Assembly: GCA_035559675.1 (NCBI GenBank)
Contig: DATMAZ010000224.1
Location: 670 to 64,669 of the forward strand
Source of the DNA: Candidatus Limnocylindria bacterium
GTDB lineage: Bacteria > Desulfobacterota > Binatia > DP-6
Length of the DNA: 64,000 nucleotides
Direction: 5' to 3'
Part shown: one piece after another, positions 6,748 through 64,000 of the stretch
How the letters are laid out: each line of letters starts with the position of its first letter
Numbering within the stretch: the stretch's first letter is position 1
The notes under the pieces: model-generated
Database searches by the model: none
Told to the model about the DNA's origin: nothing
What the model saw: the letters and a program-made list of their open reading frames with translations, nothing else
Made by a program: the position numbers and the translations under genes

Positions 6748-7105
6748 GCTCCACGTCTCATGCCCGGGCGGCGTTCGCCGATCAACCGGCGTTCGGCGCC
6801 GCAGCGCCGATTTTTCTTGACGGCGGGCGCGTCGTTGAGCAACAGTCCGGCTCGAAGGGGATTGGCACTCATGACAAGCTTCCTCGGCGATCGCATCCTG
6901 CTGTCCACCCTGCTGTATTTCGTCGCGGTGCTGATCGCGTTCGGTCCCGAGATCCGACATTCGCTCGCGCGGATCCGGGCGACCGAGCAACCCGGACGCT
7001 CTGACGGCAGCGAGCCGAGCCCCACACGCTGACGGCGCACGCCGTCGCCGGCGAGCCCCCCGCTTTCGCTTGGCGGCGCCGCTGCTACCATGACGCGGCG
7101 CCGCC

Positions 7106-9403
7106 ATGACCCGCCCCCTGCCGCCCTTCGTCCTGTCGCTGCTGCTCGCCGCCTCGGGCTGCCGGACCGGCGCGGCGCCGCTCGCCCCGCCGCTCGACAC
7201 CCAGCGCGTCCATGCGCTGCTGCTGAACGGCGGCGGCCGCCCCGCCAGCAACTACGCGTCACACCTCCGGCACCTCGAAGCCATGCAGGACGTGCTCGCC
7301 GCGGCCGACGTTCCGCCGACCCACGTCACGGTGCTGAACGCCGACGGCACCGATCCCGGGCTGGATCTCGCGACGCGCGAGCCCGAGACGGCCGAGTATT
7401 TCTGGCTGCTCGCCGGAACGCCGCTCGAGTCGGCGCTCCACCCGCCGATCACCTACGTCGACTCCATGCTCCCCGGAGCGACGCTGCGCGCCGCCACGCG
7501 GGAGGAGCTCGGCGCGTGGGCCGACGCGGGCGCCACCCGCTTCCGGGCCGGCGACACCGTCCTCCTGTTCGTCACCGATCACGGGACGCGCAATCCCGCC
7601 GACCCGACGGACAACCGCATCACGCTCTGGGGCGACAAGCAGGCGGTGTCGGTGCGCGAGCTGCGCGCGCTGCTCGATCGGTTCGACCCCGGCGTGCGCG
7701 TCGTCACGGTGATGTCGCAGTGCTACTCGGGATCGTTCGCGCACCTCGGGCTCGGCGAGCATGCCGCCGGCCCCCGGGAGGTGTGCGGGTACTTCTCGAC
7801 CACGGCCGACCGCCTGGCCTACGGCTGCTACCCCGAGAACCGCAATCGCGACAACGTCGGCCATGCCTTCCACTTCCTCACCGCCCTCGGGCAAAGCGGC
7901 GACTTCGAGCAGGCGCACCGCACCACGGTGATCGACGACGGCACCCCGGACGTGCCGCTGCGCACCTCGGACGTGTTCCTGGAGGACGTGATGCGGCGCG
8001 CGGCGGCTGCGGCCGGCAAGGACCCCATCGCCTTCGCCGACGAGTGGCTCGCACGCGCCTTCAAGGACCGCAAGCGATGGGAGCGCGAGCTCCGCCTGCT
8101 CGACGCGGTCGGCGAGCGCTACGGCATGTTCAGCCCACGGCGGCTGAGCGAGGTGGAGGAGCGCCTTGCCGTCGTGCCGCCGCTTGCCGAGGAGCTCAAG
8201 ACCCACCGCGACAACTGGAAGCGCTCGCAGAGCAGCGCGGCCCAGGTCAACTGGGAACGCTTCGCTTCGGCCGAGCCGAGCTGGAAGCCGCGGCTGGCGC
8301 CCCAGGTGCTGCAGGCCGCGACGCCCGAGGCGCGCCGCGACGTCACCGACGAGCTGCTCGACGCGCTGCGACGCTTCACGCAGGAGCGCGCCGCGACGTT
8401 CGAGCGCCTGCAGTCGCTCCACACGCGCGCCGAGAAGGCTAGCGAGCTCACCTACCGGATGGAGACGCGCGGCGGCGTGTTGCTGCGCATGCAGCTCGTG
8501 CTCTTCCGGGTCGCCGGCATCCAGTACGTCACCACGCAGGGCACGCCGGAGCAGCGTGCCCACCTGGAGCGCCTGCTCCGCTGCGAAGCGGTGCGGTTGC
8601 CGGTCACGCCCGTCGCCGATCCGCCGGAGCTGGCACGCGATGCGTTCCCGAGCTTCGAGGACGACGTCGCTGCCTCGGCCCGCGTGGTCCCGGGCTGGAT
8701 GGGAGTCCAGTTCCGTCCGGCGAGCGAAAAGGTCCGGCGGGCGCTGGGTGTCGGCGTGGGCGCGGCGATGGTGCAGGCGGTCTATCCGGACTCGCCGGCC
8801 AAGGAAGCGGGCCTCGAGGTCGGCGACGTGATCCTCGGACCGGCGGGCGACCGCTTCACCGAGCCGCAACAGCTGCGGGAATGGGTGATGACGTCCCCGC
8901 TCGACCGTCCGATTCCCCTCGACGTCGTCCGCAACGGCACTCCGATGCGGGTTGCGCTCACGCCGCGCGCCTACCCGCGCAAGTGGCCCGAGCTGCCGGG
9001 GCCGCCCAAGCCAGGCACCCCCGCCCCCAAGCTGGGCCTCACGCCGTACCGCGGCACGCCCCCCACCGTGCTCGCCAACTCGCGCACGCTGCTCTTCTTC
9101 TGGGCGACGTGGTGCGGCATCTGCAAGGCCGCGCTCCCGGATCTCGAGAAGGCCCGGCGGGACCTGGGCCTCACGGTGGTGGCGATCACCGACGAGGACC
9201 CCGAGCAGCTCGATGCGTTCTTCGCCAGCTACCGCGGGCCGTTTCCCCCGGTGGTCGCCATCGATGAGACCCGTCGTAGCTTCCTCGATTACGGGGTGAG
9301 CGGCACGCCGACCTTCGTGCTGATCGACGCCGACGGGCGGGTCATCCGCCACAAGACCGGGTACGCGAGAGCCAAGGGCCTGGAGGTCCTGGCCGGGTCC
9401 TGA
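7106..9403 (+). CDS. Multidomain lipoprotein: peptidase C13 (legumain-like caspase fold) + PDZ + thioredoxin-like (TlpA/ResA-type CxxC)
   Basis: Lipobox LLLAASGC. His/Cys dyad motifs FVTDHGT and VMSQCYSGSF. PDZ segment VQAVYPDSPAKEAGLEVGDVILG. C-terminal FFWATWCGICK thioredoxin motif. Confidence 0.7.
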   Translation: MTRPLPPFVLSLLLAASGCRTGAAPLAPPLDTQRVHALLLNGGGRPASNYASHLRHLEAMQDVLAAADVPPTHVTVLNADGTDPGLDLATREPETAEYFWLLAGTPLESALHPPITYVDSMLPGATLRAATREELGAWADAGATRFRAGDTVLLFVTDHGTRNPADPTDNRITLWGDKQAVSVRELRALLDRFDPGVRVVTVMSQCYSGSFAHLGLGEHAAGPREVCGYFSTTADRLAYGCYPENRNRDNVGHAFHFLTALGQSGDFEQAHRTTVIDDGTPDVPLRTSDVFLEDVMRRAAAAAGKDPIAFADEWLARAFKDRKRWERELRLLDAVGERYGMFSPRRLSEVEERLAVVPPLAEELKTHRDNWKRSQSSAAQVNWERFASAEPSWKPRLAPQVLQAATPEARRDVTDELLDALRRFTQERAATFERLQSLHTRAEKASELTYRMETRGGVLLRMQLVLFRVAGIQYVTTQGTPEQRAHLERLLRCEAVRLPVTPVADPPELARDAFPSFEDDVAASARVVPGWMGVQFRPASEKVRRALGVGVGAAMVQAVYPDSPAKEAGLEVGDVILGPAGDRFTEPQQLREWVMTSPLDRPIPLDVVRNGTPMRVALTPRAYPRKWPELPGPPKPGTPAPKLGLTPYRGTPPTVLANSRTLLFFWATWCGICKAALPDLEKARRDLGLTVVAITDEDPEQLDAFFASYRGPFPPVVAIDETRRSFLDYGVSGTPTFVLIDADGRVIRHKTGYARAKGLEVLAGS

Positions 9404-15028: not shown

Positions 15029-16954
15029 TCATCCGATGAGGTGCCGCGCGGTCTGGAAGGTGACGAAGCTCGCGACCCAGGCGAGCCCGAGCATGTAGCC
15101 GAACGCGAGCGCCGGCCAGCGCCAGCTGCCGGTCTCGCGCGCCATCACGACGATGGTCGACGTGCACTGCAGCGCGAACACGAAGAAGACCAGCAGCGAC
15201 AGCGCCACCGGCAGGTCGAAGACCCGCCGTCCGGTGCGCGGGTCGACGTCGGCGCGAATGGCCGCCGGCAGCCCGGCGAAGTCGTCGCTGTCGCCGACGG
15301 CGTAGATCTGCGCCAGCGTCGAGACGATCACCTCGCGCGCCGCGAGACTCCCCACGAGACCGACGCCGATCTTCCAGTCGAAGCCGAGCGGCGCGATGGC
15401 CGGCTCGATGGCCCGGCCGATGCGCGCCGCCACGCTCGCCTGCAGATCGGCCTGCGCCTGCTCCGCGGGCGAGCGCCTCGGATCGTGCGGCGCCCCCGGC
15501 ACGTTCAGCAGCACCCACAGGACCACGGACACGGCCAGAATGATGGTGCCCGCGCGCTTGAGGAACGCCGCCGCGCTGCCCCACACCTGGCGCGCGAGCA
15601 GCCGCGCCGTCGGCCAGCGGTAGGGAGGCAGCTCCATGTAGAACACCGACACCTTGCCGCGCAGCAGCGTCGCGTTCAGCAAGGCGGCCGACACGAGCGC
15701 CGTCGCCGCGCCGAGGAGGTAGAGGCCGAGCAGGGTGAGCCCCTGCAGCCCGATCGGTCCGACGACGCGCGTGGCAGGCACGAAGGTCGCGATCAGCAGC
15801 GTATAGACCGGCAGCCGCGCCGAGCACGTCATGAAGGGCGCCACGAGGATGGTCGCGAGGCGCTCGCGGGGGGACGCGATCGTGCGCGCCGCCATGATGC
15901 CCGGCACGGCGCAGGCGTAGCACGACAGCAGGGGAACGAAGCTCCGTCCCTGCAGACCCACCCACCCCATCACGCGGTCCACCACGAAGGCCGCACGCGC
16001 CATGTAGCCCACGTCGTTCAGCAGGTGGAGGGCCGTGAACAGGATCACGATCTGCGGCAGGAAGATCAGCACCGAGCCGACGCCGGCGAGCACACCGTCG
16101 GCCCAGAGATTCGTCGCCCAGCCCGGGGGGAGCACGGCGTGGGAGAGCCGACCGAGCTCGCCGATCGCGTCGTCGATCGCGTCCATGGCCGGCACGGCCC
16201 AGCTGAAGATGCTCTGGAACAGCAGCACCATGACGGCCGCGAACACCACCACGCCCACCACCGGATGCAGCAGCACCCGATCGATGCGGTCCGTGCGGCG
16301 ATCGCGCCGCAGCGTGCCGGCGCCGATCTCGCGGCACGTCTCGTCGACCCAAGCGAAGCGCTCCACCGGCGACAGCGCCGGGCGAGCCGGGCGGCGCGGC
16401 CAGCTTTCCGGGTACTCGAGCAGCGTGCGCAGCTGATCCAGTCCGACGCCCCGGTGCCCTACCACGCCCACCACGTGAATGCCGAGGCGCCGCGCCAGCG
16501 CCGGCAGGTCGAGCTGGCCGCCCCGCGCCTTCACCTCGTCGATCATGGTGAGGACCAGCAGCGCCGGGAGGCCGCGCTCGAGCGCCTGGTGGACCAGCCC
16601 CAAGCCGCGCCGCAGCGTGGTGGCGTCGGCCACGATGAGCAGCGCGTCGGGAACGGGCTCGCCCGGGATTTCGCCCGCGAGCACCCGCTGCACGATCTGC
16701 TCGTCGGGCGTCTCGCCGTCGAGCGCGTAGGTCCCGGGCAGATCGAGGATCGAGACCGGGCGGCGCGCGCCGCGCAGCGGGCCCCAGCGGCGCTCGACGG
16801 TGACGCCCGGGTAGTTGCCAACCCGGGCGGCCGATCCCGTGAGCGCGTTGAAGAGCGTCGTCTTGCCGGCGTTCGGCGAGCCGACGAGCGCGATGCGGAC
16901 GGCCGTCGCGCCCTCGTCCTCCACCATCGCGGCGCTGCCGGCCTGCGCGTTCAT
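15029..16954 (-). CDS. feoB: Ferrous iron transport protein B
   Basis: N-terminal G-domain GSPNAGKTTLFNALTG followed by a polytopic membrane domain. Confidence 0.9.
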   Translation of the reverse strand: MNAQAGSAAMVEDEGATAVRIALVGSPNAGKTTLFNALTGSAARVGNYPGVTVERRWGPLRGARRPVSILDLPGTYALDGETPDEQIVQRVLAGEIPGEPVPDALLIVADATTLRRGLGLVHQALERGLPALLVLTMIDEVKARGGQLDLPALARRLGIHVVGVVGHRGVGLDQLRTLLEYPESWPRRPARPALSPVERFAWVDETCREIGAGTLRRDRRTDRIDRVLLHPVVGVVVFAAVMVLLFQSIFSWAVPAMDAIDDAIGELGRLSHAVLPPGWATNLWADGVLAGVGSVLIFLPQIVILFTALHLLNDVGYMARAAFVVDRVMGWVGLQGRSFVPLLSCYACAVPGIMAARTIASPRERLATILVAPFMTCSARLPVYTLLIATFVPATRVVGPIGLQGLTLLGLYLLGAATALVSAALLNATLLRGKVSVFYMELPPYRWPTARLLARQVWGSAAAFLKRAGTIILAVSVVLWVLLNVPGAPHDPRRSPAEQAQADLQASVAARIGRAIEPAIAPLGFDWKIGVGLVGSLAAREVIVSTLAQIYAVGDSDDFAGLPAAIRADVDPRTGRRVFDLPVALSLLVFFVFALQCTSTIVVMARETGSWRWPALAFGYMLGLAWVASFVTFQTARHLIG

Positions 16955-21829: not shown

Positions 21830-23353
21830 CTACGCCGCGTCGGGCTGCGCCGTGGCGAGCCGCCGCTCGATCGGCCGCACCAGCAGCGCCAGCCCCACGC
21901 CCGCCGCGAGCGCGATCAGCGTCACGGCGCCGAAGAGGCTCGGCAGCGAGAGCGCCTCGTAGAGCCCGGCCACACGCCCGCCGAGGTAGTTGCCGACGGC
22001 CGCCGCCAGGAACCAGGCGCCCATCATGAGGCCCGCCACCCGCGCCGGAGCGAGCCGGCTCATCGCGCTGAGCCCCACCGGAGAGAGGCAGAGTTCGCCG
22101 ATCGTGTGGAGCAGGTAGGCCGCCAGCAACCAGAACGGACTCACCTTGCCGTCGGCCGCCAGGTGGGCGGCGACCGCCATCACGCCGAATCCCGCAGCCG
22201 CAAACACCAGTCCGGCGGCGAACTTCGCCGGACTCGACGGATCGCGCCGCCCGAGGTGCGCCCAGAGCCAGGCGAACGCCGGAGCGAGCAGGATGATGAA
22301 CACCGGATTGGCCGACTGAAACCAGCTCGCCGGAAAGGCGCGCCCGAACAGCCGCGTCTCGGTGCTGCGCTCCGCGAAGAGATTCAGCGTGGAGCCCGCC
22401 TGCTCGAAGACCGACCAGAAGATCGCCGCCGCAAGGAAGAGCACGAGGATGGTCATGAGCCGGGCGCGCTCCTCTCGCGTCCAGCCACGCGCGCCGAGCA
22501 GCCCGGCGAAAAACGCCACGGTGACGATGAGCAGGACCACCCCGAATGCATTGCCGAGCCCCTCCGGCGTCGCCGGGACCACACCTGAGCGCACGAGCGC
22601 CGCGAGCACGGCGCCGCCGAGGCCGATGCCGGCGAGCGCCGCAACGAGCTGGCGGCGGCTCCGCACGCGCTCTGCGGCGGCGTCGGGCACGACCGGCCGG
22701 AGCCCGGCGTCGCCGAGAAGCCGCCACCCCCCGAGATACTGGACGAGACCGAAGAACATGCCGACGGCGGCGGCGCCGAAACCCCAGTGCCACGCCGCCT
22801 CGCGCCGCCAGCCGAACGACTCCAGCAGCGCGCCGAAGCCCTCGCCCTGCGCGAGCCAGCCGCAGACGAGCGGCGCGAGGAACGCCCCCAGGTTGATGCC
22901 CATGTAGAAGAGCGAGAACCCGGCGTCACGCCGGGCGTCGTCGGGCGCGTAGAGCGCCCCGACCATGGCGCTCACGTTCGGCTTGAGCAGCCCCGTGCCC
23001 GCCACGATGCAGCCGAGCCCGACATAGAAGCTCGCGAGCGACGGCACGGCGAGGCAGACGTGCCCGAGCATGATCACCCCGCCGCCGTACAGCACCGCCC
23101 GGCGCTGGCCGAGAAAGCGGTCGGCGAGCCAGCCGCCCGGCAGCGCGGCCAGATAGACCAGCGCCGTGTAGGTACCGTAGATCACGCCCGCGCGCGCCGC
23201 ATCGAAGCCGAGCCCGCCGGCGGCGACCGGCGCGGTCATGAACAGGATCAGGACGGCGCGCATCCCGTAGTAGCTGAAGCGTTCCCAGAACTCGGTGAAG
23301 AAGAGCGTGGCGAGGCCACGAGGATGGCCGAAGAACGTGCGGGCGGTATCCAC
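21830..23353 (-). CDS. POT/PTR2-family proton-dependent oligopeptide transporter (MFS)
   Basis: PTR2 signature FTEFWERFSYYGMRA; 12+ TM helices. Confidence 0.85.
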   Translation of the reverse strand: MDTARTFFGHPRGLATLFFTEFWERFSYYGMRAVLILFMTAPVAAGGLGFDAARAGVIYGTYTALVYLAALPGGWLADRFLGQRRAVLYGGGVIMLGHVCLAVPSLASFYVGLGCIVAGTGLLKPNVSAMVGALYAPDDARRDAGFSLFYMGINLGAFLAPLVCGWLAQGEGFGALLESFGWRREAAWHWGFGAAAVGMFFGLVQYLGGWRLLGDAGLRPVVPDAAAERVRSRRQLVAALAGIGLGGAVLAALVRSGVVPATPEGLGNAFGVVLLIVTVAFFAGLLGARGWTREERARLMTILVLFLAAAIFWSVFEQAGSTLNLFAERSTETRLFGRAFPASWFQSANPVFIILLAPAFAWLWAHLGRRDPSSPAKFAAGLVFAAAGFGVMAVAAHLAADGKVSPFWLLAAYLLHTIGELCLSPVGLSAMSRLAPARVAGLMMGAWFLAAAVGNYLGGRVAGLYEALSLPSLFGAVTLIALAAGVGLALLVRPIERRLATAQPDAA

Positions 23354-41273: not shown

Positions 41274-41312
41274 TTCGAAGCCTGACGCTCTATCCAGCTG
41301 AGCTACGGGCGC
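41274..41312 (+). repeat. Direct repeat copy 2 (partial tRNA-Arg, nt 1-39 only)
   Basis: Identical to 38143-38181. Sequence diverges exactly after the anticodon loop. A degenerate T-arm-like stretch lies at 41171-41190. Confidence 0.8.
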
Positions 41313-41397
41313 AGGGACCGAGGCGCTTCTAACTCGGGCGCCGAGCGGAGTCGAGCGCGGGCGGGCATGGTGCCAGGCACCAGCGCTTGCAGCCGGC

Positions 41398-42888
41398 TCA
41401 CGCCGTGACAACGCGGTTGGAGAAACGCCGTACGGATCGCGTCACCCTGAGCGCGCCCTGGACGGCGGCGGCGTGCAGCTCGGCGAAGGCGTCGCTCACC
41501 GCCTCCGACAGCTCCTCCAGGTCCGGGACGAGATCCCAGTCGGCGTTGAGCCCGAAGCACAGCGAGTCGTGGTAGCTGAGAATCGCCACGCCCACGCCCT
41601 GCTGCTCGAACAGCGGCACGAGAGGAAACGCGCCCACCATGCGGGCGCCCAACAGGTAGAGCGGCACGTCCGGGCCCGGCACGTTGGTGACGATCAGGTT
41701 GTAGGGAGCGAGGAAGGTCACGAGCTTCAAGGCGAGCGACAACAGCGTGCCCGGCATCGCGAACTCGGCCGCCCAGCCGAGCAGCTCGGCCGCCCGCTCC
41801 TGCCGCGTCTCCTTCAGCCAGCGGGTGGTCCGCCGCACGGCCGCGTAGCGCTTGCGCACGTTGGGCTCGCCGACGGGCAGCGTCGCGAGCCATCCGGAGG
41901 CCCGGTTGCTGAGACGGCCGCGCTCGTCCTCGCGCCGCACGCTGACGGGCACGACGACGCGGAACTCGCCGCGGCGGGGGTCGCGGCCCCGATTCTCCAG
42001 GAACCGCCGCATGCCGCCGGCGATGGTGGCGAGCACGACGTCGTTGATCGTGCCTCCGAAGCGCTCGCGCACCGCCTGCACGTCGGCCAGGCGCAGCCGG
42101 TGCCAGTCGAAGCGCCGGTGCGGCCCGATGCGGCGATTGAGGGGCGTCGGCGCCGGCGGCCTGAGTCCACTCGCCACGAAGTCGAGCACGCTGGTCACGC
42201 CGGCAGCGGCCTGCCGCACGAGCTCGGTGGCGCTGCGCACCTGGGCCAGCAGCTGAGCCGCGGCGCCGAGCGGCTCGGTCACCTGCCGCACGAGCTCGTC
42301 CCGCAGCAGCCGCCAGCCCTCGGGCGCCGGCTGCGGCGTCCAGGGGCGTGGCGCATCGACGTGCGTCTCGGGCGTGAGCCGCAGCAGCGCGCCGAAAAAC
42401 TCGAACGCCGAGATGCCGTCCGCCATGGCGTGGTGGCACTTCACCACTACCGCGAAGCGGTCGTCCGCCAGGCCTTCGACCACCCAGAGCTCCCAGAGCG
42501 GCTTGCCGCGATCGAGCTGCTGCGAGACGATGCGCGACACCACGGCCCGCAGCTCGTCGTCCCCTCCCGGCCGCGGCAGCGCGGTGTGCCGCACGTGGTA
42601 ATCGATGTTGAACTGCGCGTCGTCGACCCAGACCGGTTGCCCGGTGAGCGGGACGAACGCGAGCCGTTGCCGGTAGCGCGGCGCGAGGTGCAAGCAAGCC
42701 GCGACGTGCGCCCGAATGCGCTCGATCGCGATCCCGCCGTCGGGCTTGGCGAGCGGCCCCGCTTCGAAGATCGCGACGCCGCCGAGATGCATGTGCGTGT
42801 GACGGTCTTCGAACAGCAGGAACGAGCGATCCTGCGCGGATAACCGCTCGTACCCGATCCCGTCCGTCACACCACCACCCCGGCGCAT
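41398..42888 (-). CDS. Wax ester synthase/diacylglycerol acyltransferase (WS/DGAT)
   Basis: N-terminal ERLSAQDRSFL...MHLGGVAIFE and the active-site HHAMADG motif. Confidence 0.8.
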   Translation of the reverse strand: MRRGGGVTDGIGYERLSAQDRSFLLFEDRHTHMHLGGVAIFEAGPLAKPDGGIAIERIRAHVAACLHLAPRYRQRLAFVPLTGQPVWVDDAQFNIDYHVRHTALPRPGGDDELRAVVSRIVSQQLDRGKPLWELWVVEGLADDRFAVVVKCHHAMADGISAFEFFGALLRLTPETHVDAPRPWTPQPAPEGWRLLRDELVRQVTEPLGAAAQLLAQVRSATELVRQAAAGVTSVLDFVASGLRPPAPTPLNRRIGPHRRFDWHRLRLADVQAVRERFGGTINDVVLATIAGGMRRFLENRGRDPRRGEFRVVVPVSVRREDERGRLSNRASGWLATLPVGEPNVRKRYAAVRRTTRWLKETRQERAAELLGWAAEFAMPGTLLSLALKLVTFLAPYNLIVTNVPGPDVPLYLLGARMVGAFPLVPLFEQQGVGVAILSYHDSLCFGLNADWDLVPDLEELSEAVSDAFAELHAAAVQGALRVTRSVRRFSNRVVTA

Positions 42889-42932
42889 TTATGACGAACG
42901 GCGGTCGGAAGGTAAAGACGCCTGGGGCGAAA

Positions 42933-45467
42933 TCAGACGCCGAGATCGCCGCGCAGCGTCTCGATACGGCTCAGCGCGTCACCGGAGCCCTCCGACAGCG
43001 CCGCGCCGAGCTCCAGATCGGTGATCTGCTTGGGCTGCAGGCGCACGACCTTCTTCCCGAACCGCACCACGGCGCGGCGCGCCGTGCGAAGGGCCTTGCC
43101 GACCTTCTTCGGCCGTCCGGCGTCGAGCGCCGCTTCGGCGGCGTCGATCTTGCGGCCGGCCTTGTCGAGGAGCTTGACGAGCGTCGCCCGTCCCTTCGGC
43201 GTCACCGAATCGGAGGCGAGCATCGCGCCAAGGCCGGCGAGCCGGCAGCGCACGCTATCGAAGCCCAGCACGGGCGCGAACTGGCAGCCGCTCGCCGGCT
43301 CGCAGCTGCCGATTTCGCACGGGTCGTCCGCCGTGCACTCGAGCGGATCGGGCGTGCACACGCCGTCGACGCAGTCGGTGCCGGCACAGCGGCCGAGGGG
43401 ATCGCAGTCGAACACGTCGCCGCACGGAATGCAGGCCTCGGGCGAGTCCGTGGAGCACACGGGCGCAAAGCGGCACTCCAGGCAGTTGGACCCCGGGGCA
43501 CCGTTGAGCGCGCCGAGATCGCACTCCTCGCCGCAATCGACGATCTCGTTGCCGCAGGCCTCGACCTCGCACACGGCCGAGCAGCCGTCGCAGGCCGTGG
43601 TGTTGAAGTCGTCGCACTCCTCCGCGCACTCGGTGACGCCGTTGCCGCAGCCTTCCACCTGGCAGAAGTGCGAGCAACCGTCGCAGTCCTCGCTGTTGCC
43701 GTCGTCGCAGCCCTCGCCGGGATCCTCTACGCCGTTGCCGCAGGTGGGGAGGGCCATCAGCAGGCACATGTCGTCGCACGTCTCGCTCGGTCCGCCGTCG
43801 TCGCACTGCTCGCTGCACTCGACCCGCCCGTTGCCGCAGCCCTCCTCCCGGCACTGTGCCGAGCAGGCCCCGGCGTCGCAGTCGATCGGCGCACCCGTGT
43901 CGCACTCCTCCCCGCATTCGACTATCCCGTCGCCGCAGACGTCGTCGCGACGCGAGCAGTCGGCTGCGCAGCCGTCGCAGGCCGTGGTGTTGCCGTCGTC
44001 GCACGCCTCGGCCACGCCGTGCTCATCGCACCCGAGCCGCCCGTCGCCGCAGCGCTCCGTTTGACAGGTTGGCGAGCAACCGTCGCACGACTCCGTGTTG
44101 CCATCGTCGCAGGTCTCGCCCGTCTCGGTAATCCCGTTGCCACAGCTCGTCGCCGGGAGCCCACCGCACGGGACCAGATCCGGCTCCACCAGGATGTCTG
44201 GCGTGGGCTGCAGCACAGCACCGGCGAGATCGGGCGGATTGGCGGCATCGCGGTGCTGGAGGAGAATGAAGAGCCCTGCCCGCACGGTGCCGTGGACGGC
44301 AAGGTCCTCGCTCCGCAGCCCGACACCCCCACCGCTGCCGGAGGCGTCGATCACGACCCCGGCCGGCACGGTCACCGCGCACCAGCCGATCGCGTTCACG
44401 TCGCCGCCGGCACAGGTGAGGCAGGTGCCCCGCACGTCGATCGGCCCCACCGTGACGCTGCGCTCGCCGAAGAGATCGATACTGCCGCCGACGCCCAGCT
44501 GGTCGCGGCCGAGCGAGGTGATCTTGGCCGTCTGCACGAGGTCGATGCCGGCGGCGGCGTCGAAGTCGCCGCCGTCCCCGTCCGGGATCGCACCCGAGAG
44601 GTCGATGGGCGCATTCAGCCGGATGTTCCCCCCGAGCGCGTCGATGGTGATGTCGCCGCCGCTCCCGCCGGCGTCCGTACCACTCGTCCCCTGGACGCTG
44701 ATCGGGATGTTCACCTCGACGTCGCCGGTCGTGGCGCTGATGTCGACCGCGCCACCGTCACCCTCGACTCCCACGGCCTTGGCGTCGAGCCGGGCGCCAC
44801 TCAGCCCAAGCGTGGTCATGGAGCCGCCGGCCCCGATCGAGATCGTGCCGCCGGCGATCCCGGCCGTGACGTCGACCACGCCGCTCACCCGCACGTCGCC
44901 GCCCAGCGCGACGAGCTCGATATCACCGCCGATGCCGTTGGCGCCAGCCCTCGCATCGACCTCGCCGGAGATCAGCACGTCGCCTTCCGCCATAAGGCCG
45001 ATCGACCCGCTGCCGGCGTCGGCCCCCGAGCCTTGCGCGGTGACGATGCCCTGCACCTCGATGTCGGCGGCCGAGTCCACGGTGATGACGCCCGGGAAGG
45101 TGAAGTCACCCACGTCGATACGCGCCCGGGCCGTCCCCGCGCGCAGCACGGCGACATTGCCGCTCGTCGTCACCACCATGATGCTCCCGCCGCGCGCGAG
45201 CAACGCGCTGCCCGGGTTGAGTGTCACGCTGCCGGCAACGATCGTCATGCTGCCGCTTCCCGCGTCGAGCCGCGTGCCGGAGCCCGCCGCCAGCACGAGC
45301 GCTCGCCCGCCGAGGTCGATCACCGAGCCGTTGGTGACCGCGACCGTGTTGCCCTGCGGCACGACGCACGGGTCGGCCGTTGGCGCGCACAGGTCGTCGG
45401 CGGTCGTGGCCCACGCCGGCGAGCACGTCAGCAGTGCGAGGAGAAACCACCCGCAGCGCGCTCTCAC
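42933..45467 (-). CDS. Large secreted surface protein: parallel beta-helix-like G/D-rich repeats + about 12 Myxococcus cysteine-rich repeats + C-terminal Arg/Lys-rich module
   Basis: Signal peptide from GTG 45467 (MRARCGWFLLALLTCSPAWA); repeated CGNGxxExGEECDDGNTxxxDGCSxxC units; C-terminal basic helical tail. Confidence 0.7.
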   Translation of the reverse strand: MRARCGWFLLALLTCSPAWATTADDLCAPTADPCVVPQGNTVAVTNGSVIDLGGRALVLAAGSGTRLDAGSGSMTIVAGSVTLNPGSALLARGGSIMVVTTSGNVAVLRAGTARARIDVGDFTFPGVITVDSAADIEVQGIVTAQGSGADAGSGSIGLMAEGDVLISGEVDARAGANGIGGDIELVALGGDVRVSGVVDVTAGIAGGTISIGAGGSMTTLGLSGARLDAKAVGVEGDGGAVDISATTGDVEVNIPISVQGTSGTDAGGSGGDITIDALGGNIRLNAPIDLSGAIPDGDGGDFDAAAGIDLVQTAKITSLGRDQLGVGGSIDLFGERSVTVGPIDVRGTCLTCAGGDVNAIGWCAVTVPAGVVIDASGSGGGVGLRSEDLAVHGTVRAGLFILLQHRDAANPPDLAGAVLQPTPDILVEPDLVPCGGLPATSCGNGITETGETCDDGNTESCDGCSPTCQTERCGDGRLGCDEHGVAEACDDGNTTACDGCAADCSRRDDVCGDGIVECGEECDTGAPIDCDAGACSAQCREEGCGNGRVECSEQCDDGGPSETCDDMCLLMALPTCGNGVEDPGEGCDDGNSEDCDGCSHFCQVEGCGNGVTECAEECDDFNTTACDGCSAVCEVEACGNEIVDCGEECDLGALNGAPGSNCLECRFAPVCSTDSPEACIPCGDVFDCDPLGRCAGTDCVDGVCTPDPLECTADDPCEIGSCEPASGCQFAPVLGFDSVRCRLAGLGAMLASDSVTPKGRATLVKLLDKAGRKIDAAEAALDAGRPKKVGKALRTARRAVVRFGKKVVRLQPKQITDLELGAALSEGSGDALSRIETLRGDLGV
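43300..44200 (-). repeat. Tandem coding repeats (Myxococcus cysteine-rich repeat units) inside the 42933-45467 gene
   Basis: Recurrent DNA units (...gcactcctc...gccgttgccgcag...) encoding CGNG...CDDGN...C. Confidence 0.6.
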
Positions 45468-45619
45468 GTACGGGTCGCTACGCGTGGGGACAGAGCCTGT
45501 CAAGCGAGCTGCGCATGGCAGCTGCGCGGTTCGATGCGGCGTCGTGGGCCAACTGCGATGACTGTTCGGTCGGTGGTCGGGCTTGACGTGCACCCGGGCG
45601 AGGCGGCTACTCAGGGGCC

Positions 45620-46165
45620 ATGGCTACGCTCCAGATTCTGTCGCCCGTGTCGCTCGGTCCCAGTGAAGCCCGCGCGCTCGTGCCCCCGCTGCCGTCGCTC
45701 GCGGGCCGCCGGCTCGGGATTCGCGTCGACCGAGCCTGGCGATCGTTTCACTGGGTCGCGGACGAGGTCGCTCAGCACGCCCGCAAGCGGCTCGGCGCGG
45801 CCGACGTTGTGCTCTTCGACCCCGACATCCGCCTTGGCGCGCCCGAAACCGAGACCGACAAGATCCGCGTGTTCGCCTCCGACGTCGACGCGGCGCTGGT
45901 CGGCCTCGGCACTTGAGGGTCGTGCACGTCGTGGAGTGTCCACGACACGCTGGTCTGTGAGGCGACGGGGATTCCCGCGGTGGTCGTGGTGACCGAGGTG
46001 TTCGTCAACCTGGCGCGCACCGCCGCGCGGGCCCACGGGCTTCCCGATCTGCGGCTGGTGGCGCTGCCGCATCCGCTGGAGTCCCGGACGGAGGCCGATG
46101 TCCGCGCCATCGCCCGCGCCCGGATGCGCGACCTCCTCGGCCCGCTGGCCCGCGACGTGGGCTGA
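45620..46165 (+). CDS. UGSC-family selenoprotein candidate (in-frame TGA at 45914-45916 read as selenocysteine)
   Basis: A single reading frame from ATG 45620 to TGA 46163-46165 is interrupted only by TGA 45914-45916. Flanking residues read ...[23 protein letters not shown]... (the UGSC motif). Both halves show coding GC3 bias. A SECIS-like hairpin lies 12 nt downstream. Confidence 0.65.
45917..45950 (+). promoter_or_regulatory. Putative bacterial SECIS element
   Basis: Perfect hairpin gucgugga-GUG-uccacgac at 45928-45946 (8-bp stem, GU-containing apical loop), beginning 12 nt after the UGA. Confidence 0.55.
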
Positions 46166-46213
46166 GGACCCGACCCAGGATTCGCGACCGGCCTTGTGCT
46201 ACACGAGCCGGCG

Positions 46214-47308
46214 ATGGCACGCGGCACGCTGCTCTCCGAGCTTGCCACCGTCGCGGACGATCCCGACGCGCTGCTCGACTACGTGGAGGCGCAGGGGTGG
46301 GGCGACGGGCTGCCCGTCGTGCCGCCGACGGAAGCACGCGTGCAGACGATGCTCGACGCCACACCCCTTCCTCCGAGCCACGTGGTGGGCGTGGTGGAGC
46401 CGCGACGCGGCGAGGCGACGGTCGAGAAGATCGCGGTGAACGCCGTGCTCGCCGGCTGCCGGCCGGCCTATCTGCCGGCCGTTATCGCCGCGGTCGAAGC
46501 GGTGTGCGATCCGCGCTTCAATCTCTACGCGGTCAACACGACCACCTGCTGCGCCACACCCGCGCTCGTGCTGAACGGGCCGGCGCGCCACGCGCTCGGC
46601 GTGGAGTGCGGCTACTCGTGCCTCGGGCACAACGGACGCGCGAACGCGACCATCGGGCGCGCGCTCCGCCTGGTGATGCGCAACGTGGGCGGCGCGCTGC
46701 CGGGGGTGGTCTCCAAGTCGACCTTCGGGCAGCCGGGCCGCGTGAGCCTCTGCTTCGGCGAATGGGAGGAGCGCAGCCCGTGGGAGCCGCTGCACGTCCG
46801 CCGCGGGTTCGCGCCCACCGACAGCGTGATGACCGTCACCTGTGCCACCGGCACGCAGGACATCGCCGACATCTGGGCCGAGAGCGGCGAAGAGCTCGTG
46901 CTGCTGCTCGCGCGCTCGATCGACTGGATCGGCAACAACAAGGTGCTGGTGCCGCAGGACAAAGGCGACATGCTGCTCGTCCTCTGCCCCGACTTCGCCC
47001 ACAAGATCGCGCGCGACGGCCTCACGGTGCCCGACGTGCAGCGGATGCTCCTCGAGCACACGCGCACGCCCATCGAACGCTGGCCGCGCGGATACTGGCC
47101 CAAGCTCGAGGCCCGCGGCTACGTCGAGAACGGCACCGTGCCGCTCGCCGCTTCCCCGGAACAGTTCCTGCTTGCGGTGGCGGGCGGCGAAGGCGGCCAC
47201 CACGCCGTGTACTTCTGCACCTTCGGGCTTACCTGGACGGTGTCGCGTCGCTTCGATCTCGCCGCGGCTACCGAGGGCGAGGTGTGCGAGTTGCCCTCGC
47301 GCGCCTAG
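46214..47308 (+). CDS. Conserved hypothetical protein (Cys-containing; TTTCCATPA motif)
   Basis: Long ORF with coding GC3 bias immediately downstream of the selenoprotein; no confident family assignment. An alternative GTG start lies at 46196. Confidence 0.5.
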
Positions 47309-63348: not shown

Positions 63349-64000
63349 TCACCCTTGCGAAGGCAGCCACGTCTTGCCGCCGTCGGTCGTCCGGAAGATG
63401 AGGCCGAAGCCTCCGACCATCCAGCCGTGTTGCTGATCGGAGAAATCGAGCGCACGCAGCCAGGTGAGCACGTCCTGACCGATGTTCGCCCGCTTCCAGC
63501 TCGCAGCGCCCGCTTCCTTCCGGAAGATCTCGCCTGCGGCGCCGACCGCCCATCCCGAGCCGTCCGGAAACTCTTCCAGGTCGAAGAGAGGGTCTTGCAT
63601 CTTGATCTCGCCGACGTCGAGCGGATCGTAGCTCCAGTCCACGCCGCCGTTGGTGGTGCGCGCGATGTGCCCCTCGATGCCGGCCGCGAGCACCTGCTGC
63701 GGATCCTTGACGAACAGCCCGAACAGGCTCGGCAGGTCGAGCGGGTCGAAGTACCCCGACTTCTCGAGCAAGCTCCGATTCTGCTCGGTCCAGGTGGCGC
63801 CGCCGTCCTCGGTGTAGAAAATCTTGCCGAACTCGCCGACCACCCAGCCGCGGTTCGGATCGACGAAGCGGACGTCGTAGAGCACGGGATCGGCCGCGGC
63901 AAGCTCCTCCTCGGCCGTGCCGTCCCCGGGCGCTTTCACCTTCTGGTAGGTCCAGGTGGCGCCGCCGTCGCGGGTCGAAACCAGGGTCGAGCGGTCGCCC
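63349..64000 (-). CDS. Ycf48/BNR-repeat beta-propeller protein; partial, 5' end lies beyond the window
   Basis: Repeated TxDGGxTW motifs (TEDGGATW, TTNGGVDW, TTDGGKTW). Confidence 0.65.
   Translation of the reverse strand, partial: GDRSTLVSTRDGGATWTYQKVKAPGDGTAEEELAAADPVLYDVRFVDPNRGWVVGEFGKIFYTEDGGATWTEQNRSLLEKSGYFDPLDLPSLFGLFVKDPQQVLAAGIEGHIARTTNGGVDWSYDPLDVGEIKMQDPLFDLEEFPDGSGWAVGAAGEIFRKEAGAASWKRANIGQDVLTWLRALDFSDQQHGWMVGGFGLIFRTTDGGKTWLPSQG

Follow-up and report, generated by a model that had tools for sequence, protein, structure and literature searches.

The window, that is, the whole 64-kb stretch of DNA analysed here, carries on its forward strand an ORF of 98 aa (45620–45916) that starts with ATG and ends at a TGA codon (45914–45916). 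The same frame continues past this codon to a final TGA stop at 46163–46165, and the read-through product has 181 aa. The in-frame stop upstream is the TGA at 45584–45586, and no other start codon lies between it and the ATG at 45620. A second gene, coding for a protein of an uncharacterised family, follows closely downstream. The features of the locus are as follows.

45620–46165, + strand: candidate gene for a UGSC-family selenoprotein, 181 codons with Sec counted, followed by the stop (from sequence, translation and Pfam PF24696)
45914–45916, + strand: in-frame UGA, putative Sec at residue 99, which opens the U-G-S-C (UxxC) redox motif; full-length homologues have Cys at this position
45917–45927, + strand: spacer of 11 nt from the UGA to the SECIS stem, comprising the codons for Gly-Ser-Cys and the first two bases of Thr
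45923–45925, + strand: TGC codon for Cys102, putative resolving cysteine of the UxxC motif; an invariant column in protein alignments
45928–45946, + strand: candidate bacterial SECIS core hairpin, with 5′ arm 45928–45935 GUCGUGGA, loop 45936–45938 GUG and 3′ arm 45939–45946 UCCACGAC
46214–47308, + strand: partner gene, 364 aa, uncharacterised family, with an alternative GTG start at 46196; adjoins the UGSC gene downstream

The first-pass annotation had read the two ORFs flanking the TGA as one gene of 181 aa with a uniform GC3 bias. Its sequence facts (the ORFs, the position of the TGA and that of the hairpin) all hold. GC3 is 0.83 upstream of the TGA and 0.90 downstream, both values being typical of real genes (window GC 70.8%). 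The unity of the gene is upheld by a Pfam UGSC match that spans the TGA and by Cys-containing homologues that are uninterrupted. The same architecture, a TGA with an open frame after it, is found in two related loci (L001 and L002). Since TGA is the stop codon of 24 of the 36 Pfam-supported genes in the window, the genetic code is not generally reassigned.

When Cys is substituted for the stop, the protein matches Pfam PF24696 (UGSC) with 128.9 bits against a cut-off of 25 (E 2.9e-37), its residues 6–173 aligning with profile positions 2–167 of 172, straight across the TGA. The aligned site reads U/C-G-S-C, and the residues G-T-U-G-S-C-T were rightly recognised at first reading as the motif of this family. 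The NCBIfam equivalog NF041046, "UGSC family (seleno)protein," gives 90 bits (E 1.4e-25), below its curated cut-off of 125, and this match is confined to the C-terminal half (residues 76–170, profile positions 46–140 of 147). By these profile comparisons, the window protein is a member of the broad Pfam UGSC family that falls outside the NCBI equivalog. It is assigned to a divergent UGSC sub-group, which has the motif GLGT-U and an N-terminal half unlike that of NF041046. Because this half lies outside the model, the NCBI pipeline would leave the protein unnamed.

Our gene resembles the described family in its full-length Pfam match, in its U-G-S-C motif, in the existence of Sec and Cys forms, and in its adjacency or fusion to a conserved domain (Pfam PF24696; NCBIfam NF041046; "Unknown_1" in PMC2398784). 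Zhang & Gladyshev 2008 (PMC2398784) presents UGSC-containing proteins as a major metagenomic selenoprotein family and reports a UGSC/Unknown_1 fusion. Known since the Sargasso Sea and GOS surveys, the family is listed as uncharacterised in current reviews. A literature search on Binatia and selenoproteins found nothing. The gene is thus of a kind already known, and a UGSC selenoprotein at this locus will not surprise specialists.

About 10 close homologues in the protein database (59–87% identity) share one C-terminus, ...VGLGT, the exact point where gene callers took the TGA for a stop. On the contigs of two of these cut-off proteins, the same TGA is followed by 81–84 conserved codons that are annotated as a second small UGSC ORF. 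Close homologues at L001, L002 and L003 likewise keep the TGA, with 81–84 conserved codons after it. The comparison proposed in the first-pass annotation, whether Cys-containing homologues place Cys opposite the TGA, came out positive: Cys occupies this position in the full-length homologues P0015, P0016, P0018 and P0020 and in 80 genome loci. One full-length relative bears the NCBI name "UGSC family (seleno)protein." The aligned codon is TGC or TGT in these 80 loci and TGA in at least 125 loci, and the columns G-S-C-T-S are invariant in protein alignments.

The two forms were collected separately. Sec forms came from a metagenome scan for [GA][TD]-TGA-GSCTSW, which returned at least 120 contigs, all with genuine UGSC genes containing the in-frame TGA. 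The pattern left third codon positions free, and the 3′ arm and the loop of the hairpin lay outside it. TGA-GSCTSW was found in at least 125 loci, all of which have UGSC-like flanks and a conserved downstream frame. Cys forms came from a genome scan with protein alignment; its pattern demanded Cys or Arg at the U position, and for this reason it returned Cys forms only. The resulting 80 Cys loci, which served as the control set, belong to Acidimicrobiia and other Actinomycetota, Myxococcota, Binatia, haloarchaea, Methanobacterium, Embleya, Yinghuangia and others. The Sec forms are diverse, with a median protein identity among themselves of 34%, and in a neighbor-joining tree Sec and Cys forms are interleaved, with at least 13 switches between U and C. 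Thus, any contrast between the hairpins of Sec and Cys forms does not reflect one inherited clade.

The hairpin consists of 8 Watson–Crick pairs closed by a 3-nt loop and lies inside the codons for T-S-W-S-V-H-D. Both the stem and the GUG loop are present where the first-pass annotation had placed them, and 11 nt separate the UGA from the stem, which we take to be the spacing of the minimal E. coli SECIS element. The bacterial SECIS (bSECIS) model, with constraints published in PMC13188914 and PMC4605307, was implemented as in PMC13188914: a stem of 4–16 bp, a loop of 3–9 nt with G and then G or U in its first positions, a distance of 16–37 nt from the UGA to the loop, and a folding energy of −7.5 kcal/mol or lower. 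Run on the window, as had been suggested at first reading, it finds all four constraints satisfied, with −11.1 kcal/mol, 19 nt from the UGA to the loop, a stem of 8 and the loop GUG. Counted from the UGA, the loop G is nt 20, which agrees with the position described for SelB-bound SECIS hairpins (PMC4605307). No matching SECIS model came out of Rfam in a gathering scan of the window or a permissive scan of 45800–46050; bacterial SECIS elements are poorly covered there.

It is useful to compare this hairpin with the E. coli fdhF-type SECIS and the consensus bSECIS (PMC13188914; PMC4605307). All are coding-region hairpins immediately 3′ of the UGA, with an 8-bp stem and a small loop that begins with G-U and carries its G as the 20th nt. 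The UGSC hairpin differs in that its loop is very short (3 nt, or 5 nt with the closing A-U pair open, as RNAalifold predicts), it has no bulged U, and its sequence is unrelated to fdhF. It is also almost invariant, because it overlaps the most conserved peptide of the family.

This overlap raises an alternative that concedes the read-through, by selenocysteine or otherwise, but takes the hairpin for a by-product of the palindromic S-W-S-V-H-D codons rather than a functional SECIS. Indeed, the S-W and H-D codons are mutually complementary, so the stem is in part a by-product of the peptide. Among 20,000 synonymous recodings that follow the codon usage of the window, 5.4% pass the bSECIS model and 3.5% form the 8-bp stem in register, and the fold of a 61-nt segment of the window is not significantly more stable than dinucleotide shuffles (z = −0.15). 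At the level of the single sequence, the case for the hairpin beyond chance is therefore marginal. Across homologues it is far beyond chance. All 8 pairs are kept in register in 99 of the 113 distinct Sec forms among the matches listed, against 10 of 76 Cys forms, a remainder that counts for the by-product view. The bSECIS model is passed by 108 of these 113 listed Sec forms, with five failing it as implemented here, and by 4 of the 76 Cys forms.

Within the identical peptide GSCTSWS[VIL]HD, the loop Ser codon is AGU in all 94 Sec forms (among the matches listed) and AGC in all 26 Cys forms (Fisher p = 6.6e-27), a perfect separation even though AGU is rare in the genes of the window (AGT in 12 of 403 Ser codons). 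This fits the idea, put forward in the first-pass annotation, that SelB would recognise the loop G/U. Third-position entropy among the listed Sec forms is close to 0 inside the hairpin and 1.3–1.8 bits on either side, and the wobble positions of the spacer vary freely (1.35–1.45 bits). The Cys forms have no such trough at the hairpin codons, so the freezing of wobble positions is confined to the TGA forms. The clean Sec-specific RNA signature, with AGU versus AGC in the loop, is new here.

Classical covariation, the absence of which could be counted in favor of a by-product, is missing because the stem hardly varies: RNAalifold returns the inner 6 bp of the hairpin as consensus, with a covariation term of −0.08 and one pair showing a double change in a near-invariant stem. 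Sec variants with other peptides (SWLVVDQ in L086, SWC, SWG) speak against a by-product as well, as they, too, have a hairpin whose loop carries G[G/U] early, at 18–24 nt. On balance, we find it very improbable that the hairpin merely mirrors its peptide. Judged from the aligned genes, we regard the Sec/Cys comparison as decisive for a SECIS role of the UGSC hairpin.

Three Sec-type UGSC genes (L086 1206–1265, L107 6830–6889 and L200 593–652) encode a different peptide after the Trp (SWLVVDQ, SWLVRN). They are without the standard hairpin and have a shifted, different one instead, such as CUGGUC-GUU-GACCAG in L086, which suggests that structure is conserved rather than sequence.

A second alternative holds that the TGA is a true stop and that the locus comprises two small genes, 45620–45916 (98 aa) and 45980–46165 (61 aa, GTG start), as gene callers annotate it. 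Public gene calls do split the homologues in this way, and no Sec machinery (selA, selB, selD or tRNA-Sec) was seen within the 64-kb window, a length that says little about the whole genome. ARAGORN returned no tRNA-Sec in the 204 retrieved loci with their flanks. However, two separate genes would leave untranslated the best-conserved stretch of the family, which lies between the TGA and the GTG start. Moreover, the Pfam domain covers both halves, the Cys homologues are single uninterrupted ORFs, and the downstream frame is conserved in the TGA loci, at least 125 in number. We thus judge the two-gene arrangement very improbable. Least probable of all is a sequencing or assembly error, or a recent pseudogene of a Cys-type UGSC gene: the TGA is one base from TGC or TGT and the sole other exact copy (L084, from Logan SRR7882662) may share its source sample, but more than 100 independent metagenomic contigs share this TGA, the downstream codons are under purifying selection alongside the Sec-specific RNA signature, and the window protein has only 37% identity to its nearest Cys form, versus up to 69% to Sec forms.

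With these alternatives weighed, we hold with high confidence, in agreement with the first-pass annotation, that 45620–46165 is a single gene coding for a UGSC-family selenoprotein, in which the UGA would be recoded by way of the downstream SECIS. In public gene calls this gene is split into two "hypothetical proteins," as are about 100 of its relatives. Protein databases therefore lack U-G-S-C-T-S-W, the stretch that is most conserved in the family.

Other places in the window where same-frame ORFs are separated by a single stop were considered as recoding sites and rejected as ordinary adjacent genes. All are boundaries between same-frame ORFs of high GC3: FeoB and a histidine kinase (TGA at 15029–15031), a BNR-like protein and an RND transporter (TGA at 63349–63351), and a POT transporter and an SDR (TAG at 21830).

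The UGSC gene rarely stands alone. Where enough flank was available among the matches listed, a homologue of the 364-aa partner adjoins it on either the downstream or the upstream side in 128 of 129 loci (54 of 55 with Sec forms and 74 of 74 with Cys forms). The two are fused in frame in 28 of 97 Sec forms among the matches listed and in 4 of 80 Cys forms, 32 cases in total. The partner itself has no Pfam, NCBIfam or PDB sequence match, and its family is very large: one search gave 7,905 matches, and at 50% identity there are 5,153 clusters. Its closest named homologues are from Candidatus Binatia MAGs (80–83% identity). The structure model of the partner is confident and without a solved structural relative, and residues Cys82, Cys180, Arg149 and Glu183 are invariant or nearly so. 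This near-obligate pairing of UGSC with a huge family, unmodelled in the profile collections and lacking a solved structural relative, is new here. The partner is probably the "Unknown_1" domain of Zhang & Gladyshev 2008 (PMC2398784). In the window, no terminator-like site separates the UGSC gene, the partner gene, and the acetyl-CoA synthetase and cysS genes downstream.

Some UGSC homologues carry an extra domain of ∼100 aa (P0237, 303 aa; P0218 and P0222, 292 aa; P0231 and P0247, 281 aa). One of the extra-domain homologues is labelled "Fe-S cluster biogenesis protein NfuA" by JGI. This may point towards a connection with Fe-S or thiol chemistry.

The fold of the UGSC protein can be approached through the Cys homologue P0016, which is 43% identical to the window protein. 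Its AF2 model (pLDDT 92) shows five beta-alpha units in a flavodoxin/Rossmann-like sandwich. The Cys equivalent to U (Cys106) sits just before the helix 107–122, with the second Cys in the first turn of that helix. Foldseek against the PDB with this model returned only generic flavodoxin-like proteins, at TM 0.4–0.5, and a PDB sequence search with the UGSC protein gave nothing meaningful. By contrast, the 2008 paper (PMC2398784) gives UGSC a "likely Trx-like fold." A Trx fold has a mixed sheet in the order beta-alpha-beta-alpha-beta-beta-alpha; we rejected it, given the five beta-alpha units of the model and the absence of any Trx match in the PDB. The predicted fold is flavodoxin-like rather than Trx-like as in the literature, and this corrected assignment, made from the model, is new here. 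What UGSC does have in common with the thioredoxin-fold UxxC/CxxC oxidoreductases is a redox-type U/CxxC motif at a helix N-terminus, and a selenenylsulfide or disulfide cycle is probable. It differs from them in its predicted topology of five parallel beta-alpha units.

A more distant likeness is to selenoprotein B of the glycine/sarcosine/betaine and D-proline reductases (GrdB/PrdB, PF07355). The UxxC motif is common to both; GrdB and PrdB are described as carrying it in PMC9312934 and PMC2398784. NCBIfam TIGR01917 matches UGSC weakly (E 3e-4, 19.8 bits against a cut-off of 602). The alignment pairs UGSC residues 84–155 with positions 332–397 of the GrdB profile, presumably the region that holds the GrdB Sec. 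The window protein has no match to PF07355 at E values up to 0.1. UGSC is also much shorter (∼180 aa versus ∼430 aa), and it has no GrdA, GrdE or PrdA-like genes nearby, its partner being an unrelated uncharacterised protein. Homology of UGSC to GrdB/PrdB is a lead that these alignments offer, not an established relationship.

These observations suggest how the locus may work. The UGA at 45914–45916 would not be taken as a stop, as the hairpin 11 nt downstream would act as a bacterial SECIS; if E. coli is a guide, it would bind SelB-GTP-Sec-tRNA(Sec) as the ribosome approached. Sec would then be inserted, and translation would run for 82 more codons. The product is predicted to be a five-strand flavodoxin/Rossmann-like alpha/beta domain of ∼180 aa. 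In the model, helix 3 carries U-G-S-C at its N-terminus, an arrangement typical of redox-active (seleno)thiol pairs, and the protein most likely cycles between the selenol/thiol and the selenenylsulfide. It is probably the redox subunit of a two-component enzyme and would be in physical contact with the product of 46214–47308, in which Cys82 and Cys180 are near-invariant.

More broadly, we tentatively propose, as a possibility that we favor less than its converse, that UGSC and the 364-aa partner are the two components, sometimes fused, of a self-contained seleno/thiol enzyme of an undescribed kind that is very widespread and present in Bacteria and Archaea. Its small subunit would be flavodoxin-like, perhaps with a distant relationship to the Sec region of GrdB/PrdB, and its large subunit would have a fold without solved relative and two near-invariant cysteines. 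If the link to GrdB/PrdB is real, the pair could serve aerobic organisms of soil and freshwater by reductively cleaving a bond in a small organic substrate.

The findings may be relevant in two further respects. First, a synonymous difference in the loop, AGU versus AGC, tells Sec forms from Cys forms and so provides a one-base test of SelB–SECIS recognition. Second, few metagenomic selenoprotein families are more abundant than UGSC, and the partner pairing and the corrected fold narrow what to test.

Enrichment among 237 flanking ORFs revealed no dominant neighbour family and pointed to no pathway. Next to the UGSC-partner module, Amidohydro_2 (PF04909) turns up most often (6 of 98 in Sec loci and 8 of 139 in Cys loci). 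It is followed, in the flanks of L004–L204, by MFS, NMT1 and TctC transporters, FGGY kinases, MarR/IclR regulators and SDRs. Any link to catabolic clusters is weak and non-specific.

In the window, the UGSC gene is divergent from a large cysteine-rich repeat protein on the minus strand (42933–45467; CxxC...CDDGN repeats, DUF4215). The Logan contig L084 (SRR7882662) is 100% identical to window positions 41284–45941, and the cysteine-rich neighbour is present there too. Farther upstream, between 35000 and 41400, GC falls to 0.60–0.65 across a 707-aa ORF without Pfam match (35980–38103, minus strand). This ORF abuts a tRNA-Arg(TCG) gene (38107–38181) and a SocA/Panacea antitoxin-like ORF (38477–39001), and from 39.0 to 41.4 kb there is neither a clear coding frame nor a Pfam match. 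The segment 35000–41400 may be an integrated element beside a tRNA gene. Finally, a fusion protein of Peptidase_C13, PDZ and Redoxin/AhpC-TSA domains is encoded at 7094–9403 (+ strand), 36 kb from the UGSC module in the window; at L002, a PDZ/Redoxin homologue (7687–8147) lies ∼5 kb downstream of that module.
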